Assembly: GCA_965207265.1 (NCBI GenBank)
Contig: OZ242279.1
Location: 6,235,359 to 6,299,358, forward strand
Length of the DNA: 64,000 bases
Direction: 5' to 3'
Source: Vicinamibacterales bacterium
GTDB taxonomy: Bacteria; Acidobacteriota; Vicinamibacteria; Vicinamibacterales; UBA8438
Position numbers and translations under genes: made by a program. Under the pieces are notes generated by a model, which was not told where the DNA came from, made no database searches, and saw only the letters and a program-made list of their open reading frames with translations. Shown here one piece after another: positions 2,075 through 45,407 of this stretch. Each line of letters begins with the position of its first letter. Positions within the stretch are counted from its first letter, which is position 1.

Positions 2075-3587
2075 AATGAGTCACGACTCGCAAGAGCCTT
2101 CGAGACGCCAGTTCTTGCGTGCCGCGGGGTTCGCGCTTGCCGGCAACGCGGTACGGGCGCCTGCCCTGCTTCGCGGGCAGGAAGGTCCGCCGCTGCTCCC
2201 GCCGTACGTCACCGACATCGACGGCAGCGGCGCGATCGACGCCTCCGACCGGGAGATCGTCAGCACCGCCCTGTACGCGCAACGGGGATTCGGTCTCACG
2301 CCGCGGCCGGGATTCGACTACCGGGCCGACGTGTTCGGACGCGCAGTCGTCGAGCCGCTGGTCGTCGATTCGGTCACGCATTCCATCCAACGCTACGGCG
2401 AATCGCCCATGCCGACGCCCCGCCGGCCGATCACCGTCGCCTGGCACTATGGCTGGTACAACACCCTGGACCGCCCTCCCGGCTCCCAGACCGTCCGTTT
2501 CAAGGGAGGCGACTATCTGTCGTCCGATCCGGAGGTCGAAACGACCTTCCATGATCTGAAGAACGAGTTCGGCGTCACGGTGGACGCCTTGAGCTGGATC
2601 CCGCGGCGCTTGACGACCGGCAACAATCGCAACTACTTCCGTGGATTCCTGCAGGCGCCGAACGTCGCCACCCGTCACGTCTGCCTGCTCTACGAGGACA
2701 CTCTGGCGCTGCCGGCCACCGGCGGGCGAATCGGCTTTCTTGCGCCGACCGTGCAGTCCGCCTTCCGCGACGACTTCGTCGCGATGGCCCGCTTCCTGAA
2801 AGACGTGCGCCGCGTCAGTCCCGTCCGTATCTTCGCTCTGGACGGACGTCCGGTGGTCTTCATCTTCGGCACGCACACCTGGGGACGGTTGCCGCTCAGC
2901 ACGCGGGAAGCGTCCGCGATGCAGACGACGATCGCGAGCGCCAGACAGGACTTCGCCGACGTCTACGGGGAGTTCCCGTACCTCGTCGGCGAGGAGATGC
3001 AACTGTCCTCGACCGGGCAGTTCTCGGCCGACCGTCGCACGCGCAGCCGCTTCTTCGACGCCATCTACATCTATCATCACGCCGCCAACATCAAGCAGGG
3101 CAGCGAGCAGCGGCTGCGGATGTCGCCCTTGTACCTCCAGAACCAGATCAACACCCTCCGCACCACGTATGCCGCCGCGACAGAAATCCGCAACCTCTTC
3201 ACCGGGCGCCGCCTCCTGGTCATCCCCAATCTGGCTCCCGGCTTCGCCAAGTCGGGCCATCCGACCCTGGAAATCGGGCGCGGCGAGTACGCCGATTTCA
3301 TGAAGCTCCTGAAGGGCATGCACATGGAGGAGCACATCCTGCGGTACTGGTCCGGCGAGCTCGGGCAGGCCGTGCTGCCGGCGCCGGTCTATGTCGTCGG
3401 TTCCTGGAACGAGGAGTTCGAAGGGCACTGCGTATGGCCCTTCGATTTCAACCTGTCGGTGCCTGCCGAATCGGTCGAGCAGCACGGCTTCGACATCCCG
3501 ATGGCGCTCAAGGAGGTCTTCGGCTGGAATCACTACGCGTTTCGCGACATAGCCCCCGCCGCACCGCCGGCCGAACCGGTCTTCTGA
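2075..3587 (+). CDS. TAT-signal secreted protein with dockerin/EF-hand-like DxDxSG motif and a GH99-like (WbsX-like) TIM-barrel region
   Basis: Track ORF 894..3587 trimmed to the ATG at 2075 (MSHDSQEPSRRQFLRAAGFALAG is a twin-arginine signal). Motifs seen: DIDGSGAIDASD calcium-loop-like, WHYGWYN and GSWNEEFEG reminiscent of the GH99 SFNEWHEG. Functional assignment is weak. Confidence 0.5.
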
Positions 3588-3602
3588 CGCCACGGCGTTC
3601 CA

Positions 3603-4928
3603 ATGCGCACGCAAATCCTGGCGACGATCATCGTCGGCGTCACCGAGTGGCTGGCAGAGCGGTCCATCCGTGTCCGCCGACTGCTGACGGTAATCTATGA
3701 CCGGCTCTACGCCACGGAGTGGATGAACCGGCCGCCGGCCGCCCATTCGCGGTTCACGCCCGAGCAGATCGTCGCCCGGACCGACATCTTCAACGCCGCC
3801 GCCGATCGCTACTTCGCCGAGCAGACGGATCAACCGTTCCTGCTGGGCAAGCCGTATACCGATATCGACAACTTCGCGCGACGCTTCTTCGACATCGGCG
3901 TCGTCACGCACTGGCTCCGCCTCGCGCCCGGCGACGTCGTGATGGAGCTCGGCGCCGGGACCTGCTGGCTGCTGCATTTTCTGAATCGGTACGGCTGCCC
4001 CACCATCGCCGTCGACGTGTCCCCCGCGGCGCTGGAGATGGGTCGCCAACTGTTCGAGCGCGACCCGCAGACCAACTGGGATCTCGATCCGCAGTTCCTC
4101 CCCTATGACGGGCACCGGATCCCGTTGCCCGATGGGCACGTCGACAAGATCCTGCTGTACGATGCCTTTCATCACGTTCCCAATCAGGACGAGGTCCTGC
4201 GAGAGATGGCGCGCGTCCTCAAGGTCGGTGGCGTCGTCGCGATGTGCGAGCCGGCCCCGGGACACAGCCACACCGAGGCGAGCCTGAACGAAATGGACGC
4301 CTGGGACGTGCTGGAGAACGACATCGACGTGGAGGCGCTGGAACAGCGTGCGCTCGCCTGCGGATTCAGCAGAATGACCGTGGTCCCCATCGGTCTGCCG
4401 CTCTCGGTGGAAGTGCCGGCGGGGAGTCTGCGCGACTTTCTCATGGGCCGCGAGCTGGGTCACTACTGGAGGTTGTGGACAACAGCGATGCGCGCGGTGA
4501 CCTACATCGTGGTCTACAAGGGCGAGTACCACGCCACGACCCGCAACCCCGACAACCTGCAAGCCCGCATCGAGCCTGCCGTCGACCGCGGACGGGTGAC
4601 CGCCGGCGCCCCCATCCAGCTTCATGTCCGCGTGACCAACACCGGCGATACCCGCTGGCTGTGCGGCACGCCGGATCGGCGCGGCACGACCCAGCTTGCC
4701 GCGAATCTTCACCGCATCGACCCGGACACCTGCATCGACCCGAAGTGGTCGCGGACCTTGCTGCCGCGCGACGTCCCCCCCGGCGACCACGTGACACTGC
4801 ACGTCGTGCTGCCGACCATCGAGACGTCGGGCGAATACCGGATCGAGTTCGACGTCATTGCCGAGCATGTCTGTGCGTTCGCCGAACGCGGCTCTCCGAC
4901 CACTGACCTGCCCATGACCATCATCTGA
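3603..4928 (+). CDS. Class I SAM-dependent methyltransferase with C-terminal Ig/NBR1-like domain
   Basis: 441-aa ORF with SAM motif I VMELGAGTCWL, then DVSPAALE and ILLYDAFHH. The C-terminal beta-rich region (HVRVTNTGDTRW...YRIEFDVI) resembles NBR1-like Ig domains. Confidence 0.75.
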   Translation: MRTQILATIIVGVTEWLAERSIRVRRLLTVIYDRLYATEWMNRPPAAHSRFTPEQIVARTDIFNAAADRYFAEQTDQPFLLGKPYTDIDNFARRFFDIGVVTHWLRLAPGDVVMELGAGTCWLLHFLNRYGCPTIAVDVSPAALEMGRQLFERDPQTNWDLDPQFLPYDGHRIPLPDGHVDKILLYDAFHHVPNQDEVLREMARVLKVGGVVAMCEPAPGHSHTEASLNEMDAWDVLENDIDVEALEQRALACGFSRMTVVPIGLPLSVEVPAGSLRDFLMGRELGHYWRLWTTAMRAVTYIVVYKGEYHATTRNPDNLQARIEPAVDRGRVTAGAPIQLHVRVTNTGDTRWLCGTPDRRGTTQLAANLHRIDPDTCIDPKWSRTLLPRDVPPGDHVTLHVVLPTIETSGEYRIEFDVIAEHVCAFAERGSPTTDLPMTII

Positions 4929-32667: not shown

Positions 32668-33591
32668 TCACTCTCCCTGGGGCGCACGGCGGCGGGCCGC
32701 GAGTGCGGCCCTCCACCGGGAAGCCGAGTCGAAGATCCGGTCCACCGCCCCACCGTCGGCGAGATGGTCTCGAGCCGCCTGAAGCTCCCGGATCAGCACG
32801 TCGAGCGCTGTACCAATCTCGTCCGCGTTCGTGGCGCAGATGTCCCGCCAGATGTCCGCCGGGCTCGACGCCAGCCGCGTGGTGTCCGCCAGACCCCGCC
32901 CGCTCAGCGCCAACCCGTCCTCGCCGATGGCATCTCCGACGACATGCATCAGCACGCTGGCGGTGAGTTGCGGCACGTGGCTGAGGAAGGCGAGCAGGCG
33001 GTCATGGGCGTCGGGGGCCAGCACGTGAGGCGCCGCGCCGAAGCCGGTGACGAACCGGCGCAGCTTCTCGAGCGCTGCGCCATGGTGGTCGTCGGACGGG
33101 GTGAAGAGCCACGGTCGGTCCCGGAACAGGTCCGGACGCGCGTGGTCGATGCCGCCGCGCGGCGCGCCTCCGAGCGGATGTCCGCCGACGAAGGTCAGGC
33201 GGGAAGGCAGCGCGCGCGCCGCTGCGACCAGGTCGCGCTTGGTGCTGCCGACGTCGGTGACGATGGCCGCGCCCCGGACGTGCTCTTCGAGGTCGGCAAG
33301 CAGGGCCAGATTGGTGCGGACGGGAGCGGCCAGCACCACGAGATCGGCTTCCGCCATCACGACCGGATCGTCCGCAGCGACGTCGATGGCGTGGCGCAGC
33401 ATCGCGCGCTCGAGCACCGGCTTGTCGTCGACGCCGATCACCAGTCCGGCCGGCCAGGTCTCCCGAATGGCGAGGGCCAGGGACCCGCCAATCAGGCCGA
33501 GGCCGACGATTGCCACCCGATCGAACACCGGCGGGACCGACGATGCCGTTCCCGGCTGTATGACCGGCAGGGTGCGAGGCGTGTCCGCCAT
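32668..33591 (-). CDS. tyrA: Prephenate dehydrogenase
   Basis: Track ORF 32668..34014 trimmed to MADTPRTL. Rossmann motif [14 protein letters not shown] is present, with GGHPLGG. Confidence 0.85.
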
Positions 33592-33605
33592 GGCTGTTGC
33601 CCGGG

Positions 33606-34661
33606 TCAGACGTGCGACGCCGCCACGCGGCGGGCCACCGGCTCCACGCAGATGCTCCGGCCGATGGCCGGGGCGATGATGCGCAGCTCGGACATCAGGC
33701 GCTCGAACTGCTCCGGAAACATCGACTGCGCGCCGTCGCTCCGGGCGTGGTCCGGGTCGGGATGCACCTCGATCAGGAGTCCGTCGGCACCTGCCGCCAC
33801 CGCCGCACGGGCCATCGGGGCCACCTTGTCGCGCAGTCCGGTTCCGTGGCTCGGGTCGACGATGACGGGCAGGTGGCTCAGCTTGTGAATCACCGGGATC
33901 GCCGAGATGTCCAGCGTATTCCGGGTGTAGGGCTCGAACGTGCGGATGCCCCGCTCGCAGAGGACCACGTTGCCGTTGCCGCCGGCCAGCACGTACTCCG
34001 ACGAGAGCAGCCACTCCTCGATCGTCGCCGAGATGCCGCGCTTGAGCAGAATGGGCGTCCGCGACCGGCCGAGCTCCCGCAGGAGGCTGTAGTTCTGCAT
34101 GTTGCGGGCGCCCACCTGCAGCATGTCGGCGTACCTGCCTACCAGCTCGATCTGGCCGACGTCCATCACCTCGGTCACCAGCTTCAGCCGATGCCGGTCG
34201 CAGGCGGCGCGCAGCATGCGCAGGCCCTCCTCGCCGAGGCCCTGGAAGCTGTAGGGCGAGCTGCGCGGCTTGAACGCCCCTCCGCGCAGCATCTTGGCGC
34301 CGGCCCCGGCTACCGTGGCGGCGGCGGCATCGACCTGCTCCTCCGTCTCGGCGGAGCAGGGCCCCGCCATGACGATCACCTCGTCGCCGCCGATCCGGAA
34401 CCCTCCCAGCGAAACGAGGGTGGAAGTCGGCCTGAAGGTGCGGCTGGCCAGCTTGTAGGGCTCGGTGATGCGCAGCACCTGCTGCACGCCGTCCATGACC
34501 TCGATCACGCCGGTGTCGAATTCCCGGTTCCCTCCGACCGCCCCGAGCACGGTCTTGAGCGCGCCGGTCGAGCGATGCACGTCGAAGTTCCGCTCGACGA
34601 GCGTGGCGATGACGTGCTGAATCTGGTCCTCCGACGCGCGTTCCTGCATGACGACCACCAT
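33606..34661 (-). CDS. 3-deoxy-7-phosphoheptulonate (DAHP) synthase, type I-beta, with N-terminal ferredoxin-like regulatory domain
   Basis: 351 aa. Motifs seen: [23 protein letters not shown]. The roughly 75-aa N-terminal extension resembles the Thermotoga-type regulatory domain. Confidence 0.9.
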
Positions 34662-34698
34662 CGCACTCTACTCCCTGCGCCCGGCGTCTGCCGCCGGG

Positions 34699-35034
34699 CT
34701 ACCCGTTCCCGGGCTCTCCTGCATCCCGCAGCCGTTCCAGACGGCGCGACTCGTCGATGATCCGCTCGAACAGGCGGATTATCGCGACGTCCGCCAGGGG
34801 ACCCGCGTTGACCCGCCGCACGTGATCGAGCACGGTCCGTTCCCGACCAGGCTGGTAGACTTCCATTCCCACCTGCTCCTTGAGCCGCCCGATCTCGTTC
34901 GCGCAGGTTGCGCGGGCGTTCAGGAGACGCACGATTTCCTCGTCCAATCGATCGATCCGGCGCCTGTACGCATCGAGCCGCTCCGCGATGTTCTCGGGCG
35001 CCGGAGGATCGCCCTGGGACCTGCCTTCCGGCAT
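34699..35034 (-). CDS. Chorismate mutase (AroQ class)
   Basis: Track ORF 34699..35124 trimmed to MPEGRSQ. LDAYRRRIDRLDEEIVRLLNARA...IGRLK is the AroQ helix-1 pattern. The ATG lies 1 nt after the trpA stop. Confidence 0.8.
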   Translation of the reverse strand: MPEGRSQGDPPAPENIAERLDAYRRRIDRLDEEIVRLLNARATCANEIGRLKEQVGMEVYQPGRERTVLDHVRRVNAGPLADVAIIRLFERIIDESRRLERLRDAGEPGNG

Positions 35035-35035
35035 C

Positions 35036-35869
35036 TCATTGCTCTCCCGCGCCCACGGACGCGGCGCGGCCCTCGGGAGTGTCGACGTCGCCGCGCAGCC
35101 ACCGCACGTACCGTTCCACGTCACCCAGCACGCTGCTCGGCGCGGCCCGGGCGATGACGTCGATCAATGCGCTGCCAACGACCGCCGCGTCGGCCCAGCG
35201 TCCCACTTCAGCCACGTGTTCCGGGCGCGAGATGCCGAAGCCGAGCGCGACCGGCAGATCGGTAGCCCGCCGAATGCGGCCGACCAGTGCCTCGGCGCCG
35301 TCGGCGATCGCGCTGCGGGCGCCGGTCACCCCCAACCGCGATATGCCGTAGAGGAACCCGCGCCCCAGCTCCGCCGCCCGGCGGATGCGCGCGTCGGTCG
35401 TGGTGGGGCTGAGCAGGAAGATCGGGTCGATTCCGGCGCCCAGCGTCGCGTCGCGAAACCGGTCGGCCTCCTCGATCGGCAGATCGAGTGCGAGCACGCC
35501 GTCGACGCCGGCCGCGGCGGCCCGCTCGACGAACCCGGTCGTGCCCATGCGCACGACCGGGTTGGCATAGGTGAACAGCACGATGCCGGCCGAGATGTCC
35601 GGTCGCACCTCGGCCACGAGGTCCAGCACGCGGGCGAGCGTGGCGCCGGCGCGCAGGGCCCGTTCCGAGGCCCGCTGAATCACCGGTCCGTCGGCGAGCG
35701 GGTCGGAGAACGGCACGCCGACTTCCAGGACGTCGGCGCCGGCCCGGTCCAGCACCTGCAGGATCTCGGCGGAACGCTCCAGATCCGGATCGCCGGCCGT
35801 CGTGAACGTCACGAGGCCGTGCCGGCCGCGGCGCCGCAAGGTCTCGAACGTACGCTCCAGACGCGACAT
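35036..35869 (-). CDS. trpA: Tryptophan synthase alpha chain
   Basis: Track ORF 35036..35917 trimmed to MSRLERTFETL. LEVGVPFSDPLADGPVIQ signature is present. Confidence 0.93.
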   Translation of the reverse strand: MSRLERTFETLRRRGRHGLVTFTTAGDPDLERSAEILQVLDRAGADVLEVGVPFSDPLADGPVIQRASERALRAGATLARVLDLVAEVRPDISAGIVLFTYANPVVRMGTTGFVERAAAAGVDGVLALDLPIEEADRFRDATLGAGIDPIFLLSPTTTDARIRRAAELGRGFLYGISRLGVTGARSAIADGAEALVGRIRRATDLPVALGFGISRPEHVAEVGRWADAAVVGSALIDVIARAAPSSVLGDVERYVRWLRGDVDTPEGRAASVGAGEQ

Positions 35870-35876
35870 GCTCTTC

Positions 35877-37109
35877 CTATCCCTCCGCCGGCTCGCGTTC
35901 CCTGATCGCGTCCACATCCTTGTCGCCGCGCCCCGAGAGGTTCACCGCGATGATGTGTTCGCTGCCCAGTTCCGGCGCGAGACGGCATGCGTGCGACACC
36001 GCGTGGGCCGACTCGAGCGCCGGCAGAATCCCTTCGGTGCGGGCGAGCAGCCGGAACGCGCCGAGCGCTTCCTCATCGGACGCCGAGGCGTACTCCGCAC
36101 GGCCGAGATCGCGGAGCCACGCGTGCTCGGGCCCCACGGCGGCGTAGTCGAGCCCGGCCGACACCGAGTGCGTGGGCTCGATGTTGCCGTCGAGGTCCTG
36201 CAGGAGATAGCTGCGCGTGCCTTGCAGCACGCCGGCCACCCCGGTGGCGAATCGCGCCGCGTGACGCCCCGCCACCAGCGCCTCGCCACCCGCCTCGACG
36301 CCGACCAGCCGCACGTCGCCGTCCTCGACGAAGCCGTCGAAGATGCCCAGGGCGTTGCTGCCCCCCCCGACGCAGGCGACCACGACGTCCGGGGCCCGAC
36401 CGGCCAGCTCGCCCATCTGCGTACGCGCCTCGCGGCCGATCACCGACTGGAACTCGCGCACCATCAGCGGATACGGGTGCGGGCCCAGCACCGAGCCGAG
36501 CAGGTAGTAGGTGTCCCCGACGTTCGTCACCCAGTCCCGCATCGCCTCGTTGATGGCGTCCTTCAAGGTCCGGCTCCCGGAGTCGACCTGCGAGACGGTC
36601 GCCCCGAGCAGACGCATCCGATAGACGTTGAGCGCCTGCCGCCGCATGTCGTCGGCGCCCATGTAGACCTCGCACGCGAGCCCGAGCAGCGCGCAGGCGG
36701 TGGCCGTGGCCACGCCGTGCTGTCCGGCGCCGGTCTCCGCCACGACCCGCCGCTTGCCCATCCTGACCGCGAGCAACGCCTGGCCGAGCGCGTTGTTGAT
36801 CTTGTGGGCGCCGGTATGGGCCAGATCCTCCCGCTTCAGAAAGATCCGCGCCACGCCGCCCGATCCCGCGCCGGCTTCCAGCGCGGCCCGGAGGCGGGTC
36901 GCCTCGTAGACGGGCGTGGGCCGGCCGACGTAGTGCCGCAGCAGCGCTTCGAGATCGGCGGAGAACGCCGGGTCCCGGCGGGCCTCGCGATAGGCCTCCT
37001 CCAACTCCTCCACCGGTGCGACCAGCGTTTCGGGAACGAACCGGCCTCCGTACTCCCCGAAGTACCCGCGCGAGTCCGGATCGCGCCGCCCGAAGCTCGG
37101 AGCCGTCAT
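35877..37109 (-). CDS. trpB: Tryptophan synthase beta chain
   Basis: Track ORF 35877..37703 trimmed to [29 protein letters not shown]. The PLP lysine motif HTGAHKINN is present. Confidence 0.95.
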
Positions 37110-37726
37110 GCGCGTGCCACCTCCTCGAAGAACTCGCGCAGCCGGCCGGCGTCCTTGCGGCCCGGCTGCTCCTCGACACCACTCGATACGTCGATCCCGT
37201 ACGGCCGGACGGTTTCCAGCGCGGCGCCCACGTTCTCCGGGGCGAGGCCGCCGGCCAGGAAGATCCGGCGGCGGGCGGCCACGCCGGCCGCCACGCGCCA
37301 GTCCACGGTTCGTCCGGTCCCTCCCCTGCGTACCGGATCGCGGGCGTCGAGCAGCACCGTGATGTGGCCGGGCACCCGGCCGGCGGCGTCGCGGGTGGTC
37401 TCGCCCTCCACCGCCACCGCCTTCAGCACGCGATACGGCAACCCGTCGCACAGCGTGGCCGGCTCGTCTCCGTGAAGCTGAACCGCGGCCAGGCCCACGA
37501 GCTCGGCGATACGCCGCACGTCGCTCACCGCGGGATCGACGAAGACCCCTACGGGCGCGACGTCGGCCGGCAGCTCGCGGGCCAATGCCGCCGCCGTCTC
37601 GGGCTCTACGTAGCGCGGGCTCCGCGGCCAAAAGACGAAGCCGATGGCCGACGCTCCGAGATCGGCCGCGAGCAGGGCATCGTCCCGTCGCGTGATGCCG
37701 CACACCTTCACTTTCGCACGAGCCAT
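37106..37726 (-). CDS. trpF: N-(5'-phosphoribosyl)anthranilate isomerase
   Basis: Track ORF 37106..38686 trimmed to [17 protein letters not shown]. Its stop overlaps the trpB ATG (ATGA). Confidence 0.9.
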
Positions 37727-38589
37727 GGTTCTCGATCTCGGGCAGTGTCGCGGCCGCGGGCGCCCCGCGGCGCCGGCTCGACCGCAGCGAGCATCCGCGC
37801 GAGGGCGTCGCCGGGGTCGGACCGGCTCATGAGCGACTCGCCCATCAGGAACGCGTCGTACCCCGCGTCGCGCAGCGCCTCCAGGTCGGCCGCACTGCGC
37901 AGCCCGCTCTCCGCGACCGCGACGACCCCTTCGGGAATCGCTTCGATCAGGGTCCGCGACGCTTCGAGGTCGACGGCGAGCGTCCGCAGGTTGCGGTTGT
38001 TGACGCCGACCACCGCCGCTCCCGCCCCCAGCACCCTGTCGAGCTCCCGCCGATTGTGGACCTCGGCCAGCACGGCAAGCTCCAGATCGGCGGCCTCGGC
38101 CGCAAGTCTGCGGAGCGTCCGGTCGTCGAGCGCAGCCGCGATCAGGAGCGCCGCGTCGGCCCCGGCCGCCCGCCCCTCGATCAACTGGTACTCGGAAACG
38201 ATGAAGTCCTTCTGCAGCAACGGCGCGTCCACCCGCTCGCGCACCGCGCGGAGATGATCGCGCGCGCCGTCGAAAAAGGCGGGCTCGGTGAGAACGGATA
38301 TCGCCGCGGCGCCGGCCGCCTCGTAACCGGCCGCGATCTGCGTGGGTTCGTAGTCGGCACGGATCACGCCGCGCGAGGGCGAGCGGCGCTTGCACTCCGC
38401 GATCACGCTGCAGCGATCCGGGTCGGCCAGCGCGGCGGCGAAGCGATCCCCGCGAGGTCGCCGGCGCGCCGCGGCGCGCTCGACTTCGTGCAGCGGGCAG
38501 CGCGCCCGCCGCTCCTCCACCGCGCGGCGTGTGGCCTCGACTATGGTCTCCAGGAGGTCGGCCGGCGTGGTCTGCACGGCGGCGGTCAT
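37708..38589 (-). CDS. trpC: Indole-3-glycerol phosphate synthase
   Basis: 293 aa. Motifs seen: [24 protein letters not shown]. Confidence 0.9.
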
Positions 38590-39608
38590 CCTCCCGCCTC
38601 CGCGGACTGCGAGCTCTGCGCCAAGCGCTCCATCTTCGCCGCCGCGCGGCCGCTCCGCAGTGCGTCGAGTCCCATCTGCACGCCATCCTTCAGCGAGTCG
38701 ACGCGGCCGGCCACCAGCAACCCTGCCGCGGCGTTGGCGAGCACGAAATCGCGCGGCGGGCCCGCCGCGCCGCCCAGCACCGAGCGTGCGATCCGGACGC
38801 TGTCGTCCAGCCCGTCGACGCGCAGCCGGTCCAGCGTCGTCGGCGTCAGACCGAGGTCGGACGGGTGCACATGCAGCGTCGAGACCGTGCCGTCGCGTAC
38901 CTCGCAGACCTTCGTGTGCCCCACCACCGAGACTTCGTCCAGCCCCTCCGCACCGTGCACCACCCAGGCGCGCTCGGAGCCCAGGTCGGCCAGCGCGCGC
39001 GCGACCAGCTCGGCAAGCTCCGGCCGCGGCACCCCGACCACCTGGCGGCGTGCGCCGGCGGGATTCGTGAGCGGGCCGAGCAGGTTGAACGCCGTCCGGA
39101 TGCCGAGCTCCCGCCGGACCGGGCCGGCGTGCCGCATGGCCGGATGAAACGTGGGCGCGAAGAAGAACGCGATGCCGGCCTCGTCGAGACAGCGCTCGAC
39201 CACCGCGGGCGGCGCAGTCAGGTTCACCCCGAGCGCCTCGAACAGGTCTGCGCTTCCGCAGCGGCTCGACACCGAACGGTTGCCGTGCTTGGCCACCTCG
39301 ACGCCGCAGGCGGCGAGCACGACGGCGGAGAGCGACGAGACGTTGAACGTATGCGACCGGTCGCCGCCGGTGCCGCAGGTGTCGAAGCTCGACTCGCGGG
39401 GCCGCGACAGGGCCACCGCATGCGCCCGCATGGTGCGGGCGAGTCCGACGATCTCCCGCGGGCGCTCCCCCTTCATGGCCAGGGCGACGAGGAAGCCGGC
39501 GATCTGCGCGGGCGTGGCGGCGCCTTGCATCACCTGGTCCATCGCGTCCGCGGCCTGCGCCTCGGTCATATCCTCGCGCCGGAGCAGCGTATCGAGTGTC
39601 TCGCGCAT
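38586..39608 (-). CDS. trpD: Anthranilate phosphoribosyltransferase
   Basis: Track ORF 38586..40250 trimmed to MRETLDTLL. Motifs seen: CGTGGD, KHGNRSVSS. Confidence 0.92.
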   Translation of the reverse strand: MRETLDTLLRREDMTEAQAADAMDQVMQGAATPAQIAGFLVALAMKGERPREIVGLARTMRAHAVALSRPRESSFDTCGTGGDRSHTFNVSSLSAVVLAACGVEVAKHGNRSVSSRCGSADLFEALGVNLTAPPAVVERCLDEAGIAFFFAPTFHPAMRHAGPVRRELGIRTAFNLLGPLTNPAGARRQVVGVPRPELAELVARALADLGSERAWVVHGAEGLDEVSVVGHTKVCEVRDGTVSTLHVHPSDLGLTPTTLDRLRVDGLDDSVRIARSVLGGAAGPPRDFVLANAAAGLLVAGRVDSLKDGVQMGLDALRSGRAAAKMERLAQSSQSAEAGG

Positions 39609-39613
39609 GACTC

Positions 39614-40188
<575 letters not shown>

Positions 40189-40189
<1 letters not shown>

Positions 40190-41712
40190 CACCGGTTCCT
40201 CGCTCCGGTGGCCGACGGGCCGCGCCCGCTCTCGGCCATGCGCAGCGCACCGAACAGCGCCGACGCCTTGGCCCGCGTTTCCTCGTACTCGGCCGTCGGA
40301 TCCGAATCGGCCACGATGCCGGCCCCGGCCTGCACCCACGCGCGCCCGTCGCGCATCACGATCGTGCGGATCGTAATGCAGCAGTCGAGATGCCCGGCGA
40401 AGTCGACGTAGCCGACCGCGCCGGCGTAGATGCCGCGCCGGGTGGGCTCGAGCTCGTCGATGATCTCCATCGCACGGATTTTCGGGGCCCCGGACACCGT
40501 GCCCGCCGGAAAGCACGCCGCGAGGGCGTCGAGCCGGTCGCGGTCGTCGGTCAGCTCGCCGACCACGCGCGAGACCAGGTGCATCACGTGCGAGTACCGC
40601 TCCAGGGCCATGTACTGCGGCACCTGCACGGAACCGTAGGCCGAGACCCTCCCGAGGTCGTTGCGGCCGAGGTCGACCAGCATCACGTGCTCGGCCCGCT
40701 CCTTCTCGTTCGCCCGCAGCTCGTCGGCCAGCTTCGCGTCGGCCTCGGCGGTCACCCCCCGCGGCCGCGTGCCGGCGATCGGGTGCGTCTCGGCGCGCCG
40801 GCCCTCGACGCGGACGAGCATCTCGGGCGACGATCCGACGATGGAAACGCCTCCCAGACGGATGAAGTACATGTAGGGGGACGGATTCACGTACCGCAGC
40901 GCACGATAGACGGTGAACGGATCGCTTTCGATCTCGGTCTCGAACCGCTGCGAGAGCACGACCTGGAAGATGTCGCCGGCCGTGATGTAGTCCTTGGCGC
41001 GGCGCACGGCATCCTCGAAGGCCGCCTGCGTCGTGTTCGAGCGAAACGATACGGCGCCCCCCGAGGCGGTCGGCGGCTCCGAGAGCTGGCGCCGCAGCTC
41101 GGCCTCCAGAAAGCCGATCCGGGCCAGCGCGAGCGCGTAGCACGCCTCGAGATCGCAGCCCTCCTCCACCTCGGCGTTGGCGATGATCAGGATGCGGTGC
41201 TTGACGTGGTCGAAGGCCATGACGGTGTCGAACAGCATGAACGCCGCGTCGTCGCCCGCCTCGGCCGGCTTCGGATGCGCGGCGCGCGCCCGTTCCAGGG
41301 TCGGCTCGAACCACCTCGCGGTGTCGTACCCGAGGAATCCGACCGCCCCGCCCGCGAAGCGGGGCAGGCCGGGCACCCGCGGCGCCCGGTAGCGAGCCAG
41401 CAGTCCTCGCAGCGCTCCCAGAAACGGTTCGGCCAGCTCCTCGCTGCGGCCTCCCTGCCGGCGGATCGTCCTTCCCTCGGCCGACCGCAGCACGAGGAAC
41501 GGATCCTTGCCGAGAAACGAGTACCTGGCGAGATGCTCGCCCCCGGCCACGCTCTCGAACAGAAAGGCATGGTCGGCGCTGTCGGCGACCTTCAGGAAGG
41601 CCGAGACCGGGGTCAGCAGGTCGGCCAGCACCTCCCGGCAGACCGGCACGAACGTGGCGCCGCGGGCCAGCTCTCGGAACTCGTCGAACGTCGTTGCGGT
41701 CATCGTGTCCAT
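40189..41712 (-). CDS. trpE: Anthranilate synthase component I
   Basis: Track ORF 40189..41898 trimmed to MDTMTATTF. Motifs seen: LLTPVSAF, LVDLGRNDLGRV, and GAGIVADS in the chorismate-binding domain. Confidence 0.93.
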
Positions 41713-41725
41713 GACGGCGCTTCCG

Positions 41726-43216
41726 TCACGCGGGCTGCGGGGGGGTCCCCTGGGCCCCTTGCGCCTGCCGGGCGAGATCCTGCTCGGCCGCCCGCCTGAA
41801 CAGATCGGCGGACGGCGTCTCGCCCGTCCACCACGCGAACTGGCGCACGGCCTGCGCCACGAGCATGTCGAGTCCGCCGATGGTGTCGCACCCCGCACGC
41901 GCCGCGTCCGCCATCAGGCGGGTCTCCGGCGGGTTGTACACGAGGTCGTACACCAGGCGTCCATCGAACGGCCCGTCCGGCAGCGGGCTCCGGGCGGCCG
42001 CGGGCCACGTCCCCAGCGGCGTGGTGTTGACCAGCAGGTCCCACGACCCCGGGCGCGGGGGCAGCGGCGCGGCCCGGGTTCCGGGCGCCACGGCGGCGAC
42101 GGCGGCGGCCCGTTCCGGGCGCCGCGCGCAAACGGTCACTTCCGCGCCCTCGCCGTGCAGCGCGAACGCCGCGGCTCGGGCCACGCCGCCCGACCCGAGC
42201 ACCGTCGCCCGCGCACCGGCCAGCGCCATGCGGCCGGCCAGCGGCGCCAGCAGTCCGTGCACGTCGGTGTTGAGGCCTTCCCAGACCCCGCCGGCGAGAG
42301 GGCGCACCGTGTTCACCGCGCCAATCGCGTTGCCGATGGCGTCCTGCTCGACCACGTGCGGCACGATCGCTTCCTTGAAGGGCGCGGTGACGCTGGCGCC
42401 CCGCAGTTGGACGGCGTCGGCGAAGGCCAGGAAATCCTCCACGTCGGCGGCCTCGAGCGGCAGGTAGACCGCGTCGATGCCGTGCGCCCGAAAGCCGGCG
42501 TTGTGCATCGCCGGGGAGAGCGAGTGACCGATGGGCGACCCGAGCACCCCGTAGACCGCGGTGCCCTCCGAGAGCTCCCGAAAGCGGAACTGCTCCCGCA
42601 TCCGCGCAAGGTCGATCTGCCCGGGCGCGATCCCGTCCCCCGCGTAGGTCCAGCACGAACCGAACCGGGCGGCCAGCACGCGCGACGGGATCCCCGCCGC
42701 CCCCATGCCGATCAGGACCCGGCTCTCGTCGTCGCGCCCCAATCTCGCCACCCGCACCGATTCCGTCAGGCTCCCCGCGGCCGCCGCGATCTTGACTACC
42801 TCGGCTCCGGTGGCCCGCATCGATCGATAGCGGCCCTCCAGATCCGGCGGCACGCCGTCGAAGACGTGGAACGACAGGACCACCCCGCGGCCGCCGCGGG
42901 CATCGAGGACCTCATCCACGAATCCGGCTCGCTGCTCCACGTCGACGTACTCGGCGCCGAGGCGGCAAGCCTCCAGCAGAATGCGGCGGCGCTCGGCCTC
43001 GCTGCCCGCGAACGCGCCTCCCTCCCAGGTCGGCCGGCAGGTGGCCACCACCGGGTGTCGGCGGTCCGCCAGCGCGCCGCCGACGTCCGGATCGGCCACG
43101 CCGTCCAGGCGCAACTCCACGAGATCCGCCCCCTCCTGAGCATCGCGCCGCGCACGCAACTCGGACGTCGTTTCCGCCGTCACCGTCGCGCACAACCGGG
43201 TCCTGCCGTCGGCCAT
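41726..43216 (-). CDS. Bifunctional type I 3-dehydroquinate dehydratase / shikimate dehydrogenase
   Basis: 496 aa. The N-terminal roughly 230 aa are AroD-like (LVELRLD, VVKIA with catalytic Lys, GMGAAG). The C-terminal part is AroE-like (GSPIGHSLSPAMHNAGF, NTD, GSGGVARA). Confidence 0.85.
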   Translation of the reverse strand: MADGRTRLCATVTAETTSELRARRDAQEGADLVELRLDGVADPDVGGALADRRHPVVATCRPTWEGGAFAGSEAERRRILLEACRLGAEYVDVEQRAGFVDEVLDARGGRGVVLSFHVFDGVPPDLEGRYRSMRATGAEVVKIAAAAGSLTESVRVARLGRDDESRVLIGMGAAGIPSRVLAARFGSCWTYAGDGIAPGQIDLARMREQFRFRELSEGTAVYGVLGSPIGHSLSPAMHNAGFRAHGIDAVYLPLEAADVEDFLAFADAVQLRGASVTAPFKEAIVPHVVEQDAIGNAIGAVNTVRPLAGGVWEGLNTDVHGLLAPLAGRMALAGARATVLGSGGVARAAAFALHGEGAEVTVCARRPERAAAVAAVAPGTRAAPLPPRPGSWDLLVNTTPLGTWPAAARSPLPDGPFDGRLVYDLVYNPPETRLMADAARAGCDTIGGLDMLVAQAVRQFAWWTGETPSADLFRRAAEQDLARQAQGAQGTPPQPA

Positions 43217-43233
43217 TCGTTTCCGCTGCCCAC

Positions 43234-43269
43234 AAAAAAAGCCTCTTCACCCTGGGGGTTGAAGAGGCT
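43234..43269 (-). terminator. Intrinsic terminator (attenuator) 17 nt upstream of the aroDE start codon
   Basis: The minus strand reads aGCCUCUUCA-a-CCC-cca-GGG-UGAAGAGGC followed by UUUUUUU. That is 9+3 bp with one bulged A and a U7 tract at 43240-43234. Confidence 0.75.
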
Positions 43270-43299
43270 GGGTTGTCCTGTCCAGTGACGCTCGGCCTG

Positions 43300-43383
43300 T
43301 CAGCCAGCCCCTCCCTGCGAGGCGGTAAACGTGCGTCGCCACCAATAGGCCCGACCCGTCACCGCGTCATCAGGATTGCGCAT
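43300..43383 (-). CDS. Candidate trp leader peptide (27 aa, tandem Trp codons)
   Basis: ATG 43383 to TGA 43300 encodes MRNPDDAVTGRAYWWRRTFTASQGGAG. TGG TGG lies at 43344-43339. An in-frame TGA lies 8 codons upstream. Only a weak AAGG lies 2 nt before the ATG. The ORF is below the ORF-track size cutoff. Confidence 0.6.
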   Translation of the reverse strand: MRNPDDAVTGRAYWWRRTFTASQGGAG

Positions 43384-43444
43384 CGCCTTGGCCGTGAGAA
43401 GGCATCACCGCCGCCGTTCGCTCGGCTGCGCGAGCCAGCCTCTG

Positions 43445-43473
43445 ACGGTAGCAGAGGCAGATCGGAGTGTCAA
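43445..43473 (-). promoter_or_regulatory. Sigma-70-type promoter of the aro-trp leader (TTGACA-N17-TACCGT)
   Basis: The minus strand reads caaTTGACActccgatctgcctctgcTACCGTcag. The -35 box is 43473-43468 and the -10 box is 43450-43445. Confidence 0.45.
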
Positions 43474-43535
43474 TTGCGGTCGCCGGGAACCGCTTGACGG
43501 TATGATGGTTCCCGACGGAAGGAAGCCCGGTCGCC

Positions 43536-45407
43536 ATGAGACTCACGCCAAGCCGCTTTTCGGCCGTTGCCGCGGGTATCGCGCTTGGGGCCGCGACGCT
43601 GGCCCCGTTGCCGGCGGTCACCTCGCGGATGCCGGTGGACGAGGTCGAGGTCGGGATGCGGGGCTTCGGCGTCACGGTATTCGGCGGAGCGACCCGCGAG
43701 CGGTTCGACGTACAGGTGCTCGGGGTGCTCACCAACGTGCTCGGTCCCCGGCGCTCGCTCATCGTCGCCAGGCTCGAAGGCGGTCCGCTGGCGCAGACCG
43801 GGGTCATCCAGGGCATGAGCGGCAGCCCGGTCTACATCGACGATCGGCTGGTGGGCGCCGTCTCCTACGCGCTCGGGTCGTTCTCGCGCGAGGCGATCGC
43901 GGGCATCACCCCGATCGAGGAGATGGCCGCGACGGACTCGACCCCGCTGCTTGCCGCCCGGCGCTGGTCCACGCCGCTTCCGCCGGCGCGCGAGGTCACA
44001 CGGGACACCCTGGTCGACGTCGTCGCGCGAGCCCTGCCCCCCGCCGAGCCGTTCGCCCGGCGCCCGGGCGACGTCCGCGCCGCCGGACTGCCGGCGGTCG
44101 CCGCGGGGCGCCTCGGCGCGTTGCTGCGCCCGATTGCGACACCGCTCGTGCTGAGCGGGTTCACGCCCGAGATCCATGACCTCTGGAGCGCCGCGTTCGG
44201 CGCCGGCGGCCTCGTTCCCACGGTGGGAGGCCAGCGCGGGGGGCCGTCTCCCAGCGTCGACGACGGGCCGCCCCTGGAACCGGGAGACCCGATAGGGGCC
44301 AGCCTGATCCAGGGCGACCTGGCCATGGCGGGAACCGGCACGGTCACTCTGGTGGAGGAGGGTCGGGTGTATGCCTTCGGCCACCCGTTCTACAACCTCG
44401 GACGGGCCCAGTTGCCGATGACGCGAGCGCACGTCACGACGCTGCTGCCGAGTCTCGCGATCTCCTCGCGGCTCGCCACCATCGGCCCCGTACTCGGGAC
44501 GATCGACCAGGACCGATCGACGGGCATCTACGGGAGTCTCGGGAGCGGACCCGAGCTGATTCCCGTCACGCTGTCGATCTCGGCCGGCGACCGCCGCCTG
44601 CGCGAGCGTTTCTCGTTCGAGATCATCGACGACCCCTTGTTCACGCCGATCCTGACGCTGACCGGCGTGCTCAACACGTTCCTTTCCTGGAACCGCGACG
44701 TCGCCCCCAGCAGCACCTACGAAGTGTCGGGGACCGCCGCCCTGGGAGGCGGGTACGGCAACGTGGCGTTCGGCAACGTCTTTACGGGACAATCGGCCGC
44801 CTTCAGCGCGGCGCTCTCGGCGACCACGCCGCTGATGTCTCTGCTCGGCAACCGATTCGGACCGGTCGAGGTGGAACGCATCGACATCGATATCAACACC
44901 TACGAACGCCCCCGTACGGCCACGCTGGAGCAGGTCCGCATTGACGCGGATCGCATCCGGCCCGGTGATACGGTTCCGATCGGGGTGGCCGTCCGTACGG
45001 TCGAAGGTGTCGCGATAGCGAATACGGTCGACGTCGAGCTGCCTCGCGACGTGATCGGCTCCGTGCGGCTCCTGGTGGCCGACGCAACGACGCTCGACCG
45101 CCGCGAGGTGCAGGCCGGACGGCAGCCGCAGCAGGCCCGCTCGCTGCCGCAGTTGATCCGGGCCCTCAGCACGGGACGGCAGCAGGACCGCCTGTACGTG
45201 CAGTTGCTGGCCTCGCGACCCGGCGCCGTGGTGCGCGGGCAGCCGCGGGCGGGGTTGCCCCCGTCGGTTCTCGCGGTGCTCGACGGTGATCGCGCCGGCG
45301 GCGACGTGACCCGCCTGCGCGAAGCGACGCTGGGCGAATGGGAGGTTCCGATCGGCTACGTCACCTCCGGCTCCCGCCAACTCTCCTTCACGGTCGAGGC
45401 CGAATGA
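43536..45407 (+). CDS. Secreted peptidase S55 (SpoIVB-type) domain protein
   Basis: 623 aa with a signal peptide (FSAVAAGIALGAATLAPLPA). The N-terminal domain has GFGVTVF...FDVQVLGV...GVIQGMSGSPVYIDDRLVGAVSY, a chymotrypsin-like GxSGSP serine motif matching my memory of Pfam S55. Confidence 0.6.
   Translation: MRLTPSRFSAVAAGIALGAATLAPLPAVTSRMPVDEVEVGMRGFGVTVFGGATRERFDVQVLGVLTNVLGPRRSLIVARLEGGPLAQTGVIQGMSGSPVYIDDRLVGAVSYALGSFSREAIAGITPIEEMAATDSTPLLAARRWSTPLPPAREVTRDTLVDVVARALPPAEPFARRPGDVRAAGLPAVAAGRLGALLRPIATPLVLSGFTPEIHDLWSAAFGAGGLVPTVGGQRGGPSPSVDDGPPLEPGDPIGASLIQGDLAMAGTGTVTLVEEGRVYAFGHPFYNLGRAQLPMTRAHVTTLLPSLAISSRLATIGPVLGTIDQDRSTGIYGSLGSGPELIPVTLSISAGDRRLRERFSFEIIDDPLFTPILTLTGVLNTFLSWNRDVAPSSTYEVSGTAALGGGYGNVAFGNVFTGQSAAFSAALSATTPLMSLLGNRFGPVEVERIDIDINTYERPRTATLEQVRIDADRIRPGDTVPIGVAVRTVEGVAIANTVDVELPRDVIGSVRLLVADATTLDRREVQAGRQPQQARSLPQLIRALSTGRQQDRLYVQLLASRPGAVVRGQPRAGLPPSVLAVLDGDRAGGDVTRLREATLGEWEVPIGYVTSGSRQLSFTVEAE

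Follow-up and report, generated by a model that had tools for sequence, protein, structure and literature searches.

A short intergenic region on the minus strand of a Vicinamibacterales genome (Acidobacteriota; assembly GCA_965207265.1, contig OZ242279.1, forward-strand positions 6,235,359 to 6,299,358, a stretch of 64,000 nucleotides that is called the window here and is numbered from its first letter) very probably carries a ribosome-mediated, leader-peptide transcription attenuator of the trpL type, which is predicted from the sequence and from comparison with related loci to control an 11-gene aromatic supraoperon starting with aroDE. An earlier sequence-only reading of this region had proposed a tryptophan leader peptide with a mutually exclusive antiterminator and terminator, and that proposal was supported by the conservation of the elements across the order, by a codon frame that is kept, by covariation in the terminator stem, by the fold of the nascent leader in relatives and by the position of metagenome leaders in front of aroDE. 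The same reading had placed the attenuator before an aro-trp operon; the leader does precede aroDE and the trp genes, but the unit proved larger, with 11 aromatic-pathway genes including tyrA, and the regulated genes cover the Trp pathway together with common steps of the aromatic pathway. Four features by which trpL-type attenuators are recognized were found here, namely a Trp-enriched open-reading frame (ORF), an intrinsic terminator, an exclusive antiterminator, and a geometry suited to ribosome stalling and occlusion. Coordinates are collected in Table 1.

The comparative set consisted of 80 loci around aroDE homologues, with 53-82% aroDE identity to the window. The labels of the 80 best genome matches were nearly all Vicinamibacterales, Vicinamibacteria or Acidobacteriota, the odd ones being two Bifidobacteriaceae and one "uncultured bacterium". 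The aroDE product of the window was itself 99% identical to a protein from an Acidobacteria metagenome-assembled genome, and the GC content of the window is ~70%. One locus, L068, is truncated by a contig end and its leader could not be assessed. An alignment of 76 leader sequences (alignment A2), with a mean column identity of 42% and a 5′ part that aligned poorly, contained three conserved islands: the Trp-codon cluster, a purine block, called block 2 here, that supplies the 5′ antiterminator strand, and the terminator. In addition, 120 metagenome stretches matching a pattern of Trp codons plus terminator arm were scanned.

Direct reading of the minus strand over 43100-43650 gave exactly the 27-codon ORF and the adjacent TGG codons that had been described in the window, where the Trp codons are flanked by a Tyr UAU (43347-43345) and a Phe UUU (43329-43327) codon and the leader run reads YWWRRT. 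Taken on a single sequence, such an ORF is only mildly improbable (an in-frame TGGTGG in a closed ORF arose in 692 of 20,000 shuffles of the 319-bp gap, 3.5%, p ~0.035), and its significance comes from its conservation across relatives. Alignment of the related upstream regions, suggested earlier as a check for a conserved short ORF with several Trp codons, showed that at least 77 of the 80 loci have a small ORF containing a Trp cluster, which takes the form WW, WWW, WWWW, WRW, WYW or WHYW. Two to four Trp codons fell within the last 25 codons in 67 of 69 scored leaders, and Trp made up 24.7% of codons near the cluster versus 0.2% elsewhere in the leaders. When TGG triplets were counted by codon phase over the 48 nt preceding block 2, with block 2 as the anchor, 180 were in the ORF phase, and the two remaining phases had 15 and 19. 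Spacing between the Trp cluster and block 2 varied among loci, and nearly all of its many values (12, 15, 18, 24, 27 and 30) were multiples of 3. The ATG lies 9-11 nt after the -10 hexamer in most relatives (observed among L007-L079), whose N-terminal peptides differ, and in most loci 26-44 nt separate the stop codon from the terminator. The frame bias of the TGG triplets, the multiple-of-3 spacings and the fixed position of the ATG despite a varying peptide indicate that the ORF is read as codons. Shine-Dalgarno-like motifs were present in only 3 of 53 loci, leaving 50 leaders without one, and translation of the leader ORF is predicted to be leaderless or near-leaderless in most relatives. 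The expectation that gene callers would miss this leader was also correct, as no gene had been placed in the leader region of two relatives (60% and 66% aroDE identity).

The intrinsic terminator with its U7 tract was located precisely where it had been described, ending 17 nt before the aroDE ATG at 43216. The hairpin folds at -20.5 kcal/mol and also appears in the minimum free energy (MFE) fold of the whole leader, and its motif is present as a single copy in the window. A terminator pattern (arms GCCUCUUC...GAAGAGGC, followed by a T-rich tail) was matched in 75 of the 80 loci, where the tail usually lies within ~100 nt of the aroDE start. RNAalifold predicted the terminator from the leader alignment. 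Its stem was 93.5% paired with 35 double-change cells, and none of 500 shuffles reached the observed score; the terminator stem covaries.

The antiterminator had been put forward as an 11-bp helix between the last leader codons and the 5′ arm of the terminator, and the two strands (43314-43304 and 43271-43261) are complementary over that length in the window, but only an 8-bp core is conserved in the family. The core of block 2, G[GA]AG[GA]GGC, is nearly invariant in the 76 sequences and always in codon phase 1, and the eight core pairs (43314-43307 with 43268-43261) were paired in ~99% of cells. The whole 11-pair helix was 78.8% paired versus 43-58% when the partner strand was slid by 1-3 columns, and the three outer pairs hold only in some clades, amounting to a minority of relatives. 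Block 2 is a near copy of the terminator 3′ arm, and so competes with it for the same 5′ arm. Within block 2 the substitutions are G/A transitions (GGA, GAA or GGG at the first codon, GGG or GAG at the second), and such Gly/Glu switches that keep pairing with U indicate that block 2 is constrained as RNA and not as peptide. As a separate observation, block 2 and the terminator 3′ arm (GGAGGGG, GAAGAGG; 43307-43314 and 43241-43268 in the window) look like Shine-Dalgarno sequences and the shared 5′ arm GCCUCUUC like an anti-Shine-Dalgarno sequence, and all three strands are unusually invariant across the order.

Comparison of the folding energies, which had been recommended as a check, returned mutually exclusive helices of matched energy both in the window and in relatives. 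A partial transcript of the window running from block 2 to the 5′ arm folds as the antiterminator at -22.9 kcal/mol, against the -20.5 kcal/mol of the terminator, and the medians across relatives were -23.6 and -23.1 kcal/mol, respectively; this partial transcript adopted the antiterminator as its MFE fold in 70 of 71 loci. At equilibrium, the terminator was favored in the window (-37.1 kcal/mol) over a forced antiterminator (-29.6 kcal/mol), and masking the footprint of a stalled ribosome did not alone flip this fold. The matched energies and the absence of a flip upon masking suggest that the choice between the two helices is kinetic and made co-transcriptionally. Across loci, the distance from the first Trp codon down to block 2 is 21-45 nt, and block 2 itself lies 9-21 nt before the stop codon in most of them. 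This geometry fits classical attenuation, in that a stalled ribosome would leave block 2 free and one completing the ORF would cover it.

Upstream of the leader ORF, the promoter described earlier as near-consensus was found at its exact coordinates and its extended -10 element is conserved, but the -10 hexamer TACCGT shares no more than 3 of its 6 positions with TATAAT. With TGC at the end of the spacer, the extended -10 reads TGcTACCGT (43453-43445) and fits TGnTAnnnT, the form kept in relatives, and a transcription start is predicted near 43438. A promoter pattern, TTGAC[AT]-spacer-(TGn)TAnnnT and mostly with the extended TGn, was present at the equivalent position in 59 of the 80 loci, ~190-200 nt upstream of the terminator. 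A built-in promoter and terminator scanner reported neither element when run on the window. We attribute both misses to its criteria (each hexamer must match at 4 or more of its 6 positions and the loop may not exceed 8 nt; the outer terminator stem has a loop of 10 nt) and did not count them as counter-evidence.

In the mechanism that we propose, transcription would begin at the conserved promoter (-35 at 43473, extended -10 at 43453-43445), and the nascent RNA would encode a short peptide with adjacent Trp codons, to be translated while transcription proceeds. When charged tRNA-Trp is scarce, a ribosome would stall at 43344-43339, 25 nt upstream of GGAGGGGC (43314-43307), leaving this block exposed to pair with GCCUCUUC (43268-43261) as soon as the latter is transcribed. 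The 5′ arm of the terminator would thus be sequestered and RNA polymerase would read through into aroDE-trpEGDCFBA-CM-DAHPS-tyrA, where CM is chorismate mutase and DAHPS is DAHP synthase. When Trp is plentiful, the ribosome would reach the stop codon at 43302-43300 and occlude block 2, the 5′ arm would pair instead with UGAAGAGGC (43249-41), and the U7 tract would end transcription 17 nt short of aroDE.

Several results count against this attenuator or limit what can be drawn from the comparison. The loci share ancestry, so that the counts given above are not counts of independent events. Changes in the antiterminator are one-sided only (GU, AU and GC), with no compensatory substitutions, and a shuffle test of covariation was uninformative for this helix, in which a purine strand faces a pyrimidine strand and pairs under any shuffle; what supports the antiterminator is thus its conservation, register and energy. 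Neither MFE folding of the 69 listed loci nor RNAalifold found a conserved anti-antiterminator or pause hairpin (1:2 helix), the upstream MFE partners of block 2 being inconsistent between those loci, and the poor 5′ alignment leaves room for a clade-specific helix. A ribosome at the stop codon had been expected to cover the antiterminator strand, and it would do so fully in the window, but 37 of 71 loci have a block 2 that begins 21 nt ahead of the stop, where a ribosome parked at the stop would cover only part of it. In the window, the ATG lies ~55 nt from the predicted start site and is without a good Shine-Dalgarno sequence, which makes initiation at 43383 less certain there than in relatives. 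Finally, L001 and L005, two of the closest aroDE relatives, are without a leader ORF, implying that the leader is dispensable in some lineages.

Two sets of observations adjoin these last points. On the minus strand (43372-43404), an out-of-frame ATG at 43404 is the counterpart, in the alignment, of the codon at which the leaders of L002-L004 start; it opens a 10-codon ORF, MPSHGQGDAQ..., with a TGA at 43374-43372, that overlaps the leader ATG, and a 1-nt indel seems to have shifted the ancestral leader start out of frame in the window. In L001, the 330 nt upstream (3670-4000) hold no leader elements and read like coding sequence, and in L005 (3670-4000) a degenerate hairpin, long in its loop and weak in its U tract, comes immediately after the promoter. 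Both look like natural loss variants.

Given the aromatic genes beyond trp in the operon, a refinement with the same mechanism has to be considered, in which the leader would sense Trp and Tyr together, and perhaps Phe. We regard this as plausible but short of probable. Across leaders L002-L080, Tyr accounted for 14.5% of codons near the Trp cluster versus 1.3% elsewhere (~11-fold), in typical runs such as YAYWWYY, WWYW and WWWRY, and the operon holds aroDE, chorismate mutase, DAHP synthase and prephenate dehydrogenase besides trpEGDCFBA, a gene set kept in distant relatives. The window leader, however, has one Tyr and one Phe codon only, Phe is barely enriched (5.8% versus 4.1%), and the Tyr enrichment could stem from a constraint on the RNA or the nascent peptide, or from shared ancestry. 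A bolder form, which we hold tentatively and think rather unlikely as a whole, is a minimalist multivalent attenuator that would combine a leaderless Trp and Tyr leader, a three-element RNA with no anti-antiterminator and an 11-gene supraoperon, and in which the ribosome alone would prevent antitermination. If this were so, an untranslated leader would give read-through by default, the opposite of super-attenuation in E. coli, and a shortage of either Trp-tRNA or Tyr-tRNA would open the operon.

A switch that works without a ribosome, responding to a TRAP-like protein, to uncharged tRNA as in a T-box, or to a small molecule, with the UGG triplets serving as binding determinants, is improbable. 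The RNA blocks are indeed far more conserved than the peptide, 50 of 53 leader ORFs are without a Shine-Dalgarno sequence, and UGG is complementary both to the anticodon and to the 3′ CCA end of tRNA-Trp. Such a switch does not explain the phase bias of TGG (180:15:19), indels that keep the frame, a conserved start codon position, or a stop codon held in a narrow range before the terminator, and the missing Shine-Dalgarno sequences are explained by the predicted near-leaderless starts, for which Deinococcus deserti offers a precedent (PMC4007540). Rfam searches of the window (E<=10) and of six relatives (gathering score) gave no meaningful match; the best score, 17.9 bits for BcKCsr2 against a cut-off of 40, was driven by the terminator. 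A T-box leader was rejected on the lack of an Rfam T-box match in the window and the six relatives and on the codon-phase signal, which argues for translation. A TRAP site was rejected as well, as there is no run of four or more (G/U)AG repeats and only 5 GAG/UAG triplets occur in the 319-nt gap, whereas TRAP-regulated trp leaders of Bacillus carry ~9-11 such triplets at spacings of 2-3 nt.

Very improbable, too, is a separate small RNA gene, or an attenuator RNA with two functions, whose ~200-nt transcript would act in trans like rnTrpL of Sinorhizobium and for which regulation in cis would be secondary or missing. The element does have a promoter and a strong terminator to itself, the terminator arms vary unusually little across the order, and trans-acting attenuator RNAs have a precedent (PMC6614838). 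Nevertheless, wherever the sequence beyond a genuine metagenome leader can be read, aroDE follows in the same orientation, the terminator tail lies near the aroDE start in the 80 genome loci (usually within ~100 nt), the frame signal of the Trp codons needs translation, and an antiterminator has no role in a plain small RNA. A trans function in addition to the cis function could exist. Lastly, a chance ORF beside an ordinary terminator with no regulatory role, for which the 3.5% of shuffles with an in-frame WW ORF and a 70% GC content that keeps ORFs open could be cited, is refuted in practice by the conservation of the elements across species whose aroDE is only 53-82% identical and by the divergent neighbor, which leaves no upstream gene on the minus strand in need of a terminator.

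Table 1 Features of the leader region, the aromatic supraoperon and the divergent neighbor (window positions)
Feature	Position	Strand	Details and basis
Predicted sigma-70-type promoter	43445..43473	-	-35 TTGACA 43473-43468, 17-nt spacer, TACCGT 43450-43445; read from sequence
Near-duplicate 5′ copy, GGCUGGCU..GCCGAGCG	43419..43440	-	In 5′ untranslated region (UTR); 3′ copy at 43309-43289
Leader ORF, 27 codons + TGA, encoding MRNPDDAVTGRAYWWRRTFTASQGGAG	43300..43383	-	ATG 43383, TGA 43302-43300; homologous small ORFs in relatives
Tandem UGG UGG, codons 14-15, proposed sensing site	43339..43344	-	Read from sequence
Antiterminator 5′ strand (block 2), GGAGGGGCUGG	43304..43314	-	Core GGAGGGGC 43314-43307, leader codons 24-26
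Shared strand (antiterminator 3′ strand and terminator 5′ arm), CCAGCCUCUUC	43261..43271	-	Complementarity, pairing across relatives
Intrinsic terminator, stem AGCCUCUUCA/UGAAGAGGCU (43269-43240)	43234..43269	-	Inner CCC/GGG helix, U7 43240-43234; fold, covariation
aroDE, type I 3-dehydroquinase-shikimate dehydrogenase fusion, first structural gene	41726..43216	-	Pfam DHquinase_I, Shikimate_dh_N, SDH_C
Rest of aromatic supraoperon	32668..41712	-	Pfam matches; tightly spaced or overlapping, one strand
trpE	41712-40189	-	Pfam; start read from sequence
trpG	about 40190-39614	-	Pfam
trpD	to 38586	-	Pfam
trpC	38589-37708	-	Pfam
trpF	about 37717-37106	-	Pfam
trpB	to 35877	-	Pfam
trpA	35917-35036	-	Pfam
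Chorismate mutase (CM_2)	35034-34699	-	Pfam
DAHP synthase (with FXD domain)	34661-33606	-	Pfam
Prephenate dehydrogenase, tyrA	about 33600-32668	-	Pfam
Divergent neighbor, 623 aa, partial Peptidase_S55 (SpoIVB-like) match	43536-45407	+	Pfam

The near-duplicate segment pointed out in the sequence-only reading is real in that the two copies, at 43440-43419 and 43309-43289, are similar, but it did not hold up as a conserved element. The 5′ copy is absent from L002-L004 (78-79% aroDE identity), where the 3′ copy is present, and is probably a lineage-specific duplication outside the conserved switch, judging from these sequences. Its proposed role as an alternative pairing element was rejected for the same absence and because direct repeats cannot pair together.

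The 11-gene order aroDE-trpEGDCFBA-CM-DAHPS-tyrA is also found in L201 and L202 (60% and 66% aroDE identity). On the other side of the leader, the divergent gene at 43536 means that the terminator serves no upstream gene. The same divergent gene adjoins the leader in L201, and gene and leader may share an intergenic control region. In L008, the trp leader is preceded, at a distance of a few hundred nt, by a cobalamin riboswitch (RF00174, 87 bits; 3422-3592, minus strand); L202 shares the leader promoter sequence of L008, and its divergent neighbors are a TonB-dependent receptor and an ABC transporter. In the metagenome scan, all 49 hits with a T tail and a recognizable downstream gene precede aroDE, and the same leader was not found before any other gene in the 120 stretches. 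The remaining hits were chance matches, gene-end terminators and truncated contigs, among which the truncated L143 and L190 carry genuine leaders.

A trpL-type attenuator in this position would assign a specific function to an attenuator in the Acidobacteriota, an abundant soil phylum with almost no genetics. It represents a well-populated family of cis-regulatory RNAs and small ORFs that is absent from Rfam, with at least 75 genome loci and ~50 metagenome loci, and annotation of a leader that gene callers miss can improve Vicinamibacteria genomes. The leaderless starts, the mixtures of Trp and Tyr codons and the loss events also provide natural variation for studies of attenuator construction. 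The textbook picture of attenuation is left unchanged by the finding. The mechanism is the textbook one, and its possibly variant features are a leaderless mode of translation, the location of one antiterminator strand within the ORF, the lack of an evident 1:2 helix and the joining of Trp with Tyr codons.

Past work places this element in a phylum where leader-peptide attenuation is poorly documented, as the sequence-only reading had supposed, and no trp leader described from Acidobacteria turned up in the open literature that could be searched. A 2010 survey reported that a function was associated with almost none of the predicted Acidobacteria attenuators, and that, its own finding in Firmicutes excepted, only Proteobacteria and Actinobacteria had been shown to have leader-peptide systems (PMC2965389). 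Documented leader peptides come from Proteobacteria and Actinobacteria, and those of Deinococcus are predictions (PMC4833913, PMC1262725, PMC4007540). Among the Actinobacteria, trp leader peptides of Corynebacterium glutamicum and Streptomyces venezuelae are cited as experimentally supported in PMC4833913, and others are comparative predictions (PMC1262725). These actinobacterial leaders resemble the present one in their high-GC genomes, their Trp-rich peptides (theirs upstream of trpE) and their alternative of terminator and antiterminator. They differ in that they belong to another phylum, whereas here the first gene is aroDE and not trpE and Tyr codons join the Trp codons.

In Deinococcus deserti, attenuation leader peptides, including that of trpEGD, have their start codons at or 1 nt from the 5′ end of the transcript and no Shine-Dalgarno sequence (PMC4007540). 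This is similar to the present family, in which 50 of 53 leaders have no Shine-Dalgarno sequence and the ATG typically follows the -10 by 9-11 nt, although the transcription starts are mapped in D. deserti and predicted here, and the 5′ UTR of the window is ~55 nt. The trpL leader of Sinorhizobium meliloti, with its RNA rnTrpL, is a ribosome-dependent attenuator, and both the RNA left after termination and the peptide can take on additional functions (PMC6614838, PMC7298713). It differs from the Vicinamibacterales element in controlling trpE(G) alone and not a supraoperon.

The regulated unit invites two further comparisons. The multivalent leaders of the thr and ilvGMEDA operons of E. coli mix codons for several amino acids of a shared pathway, and joint sensing of Trp and Tyr by the present leader is only suggested, by codon enrichment. 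B. subtilis likewise transcribes aro, trp and tyrA genes together in a single supraoperon, which is regulated by TRAP; TRAP repeats are absent here.

The closest parallel is E. coli trpL (RF00513). The E. coli peptide ends in GWWRTS and the run here is YWWRRT, a likeness that the sequence-only reading had noted beside its appeal to trpL logic. Both leaders have a short ORF with adjacent UGG UGG codons, a terminator just before the first biosynthetic gene and an exclusive antiterminator that uses the 5′ arm of the terminator. The spacing from the Trp codons to the antiterminator 5′ strand is also similar, ~20 nt in E. coli and 21-45 nt here. Differences are nonetheless evident. Homology in sequence or structure was not detectable. 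The Rfam Trp_leader family RF00513 was not matched by the window at E<=10 or by six relatives at the gathering score, no conserved 1:2 pause or anti-antiterminator hairpin was found here, and the antiterminator 5′ strand lies inside the ORF, before the stop, whereas that of E. coli comes right behind it. Translation from a near-leaderless mRNA is apparent for the leader ORF of most relatives, and the regulated unit is an 11-gene aromatic supraoperon starting with aroDE. Taken together, the element appears to work like trpL while belonging outside the RF00513 sequence family.

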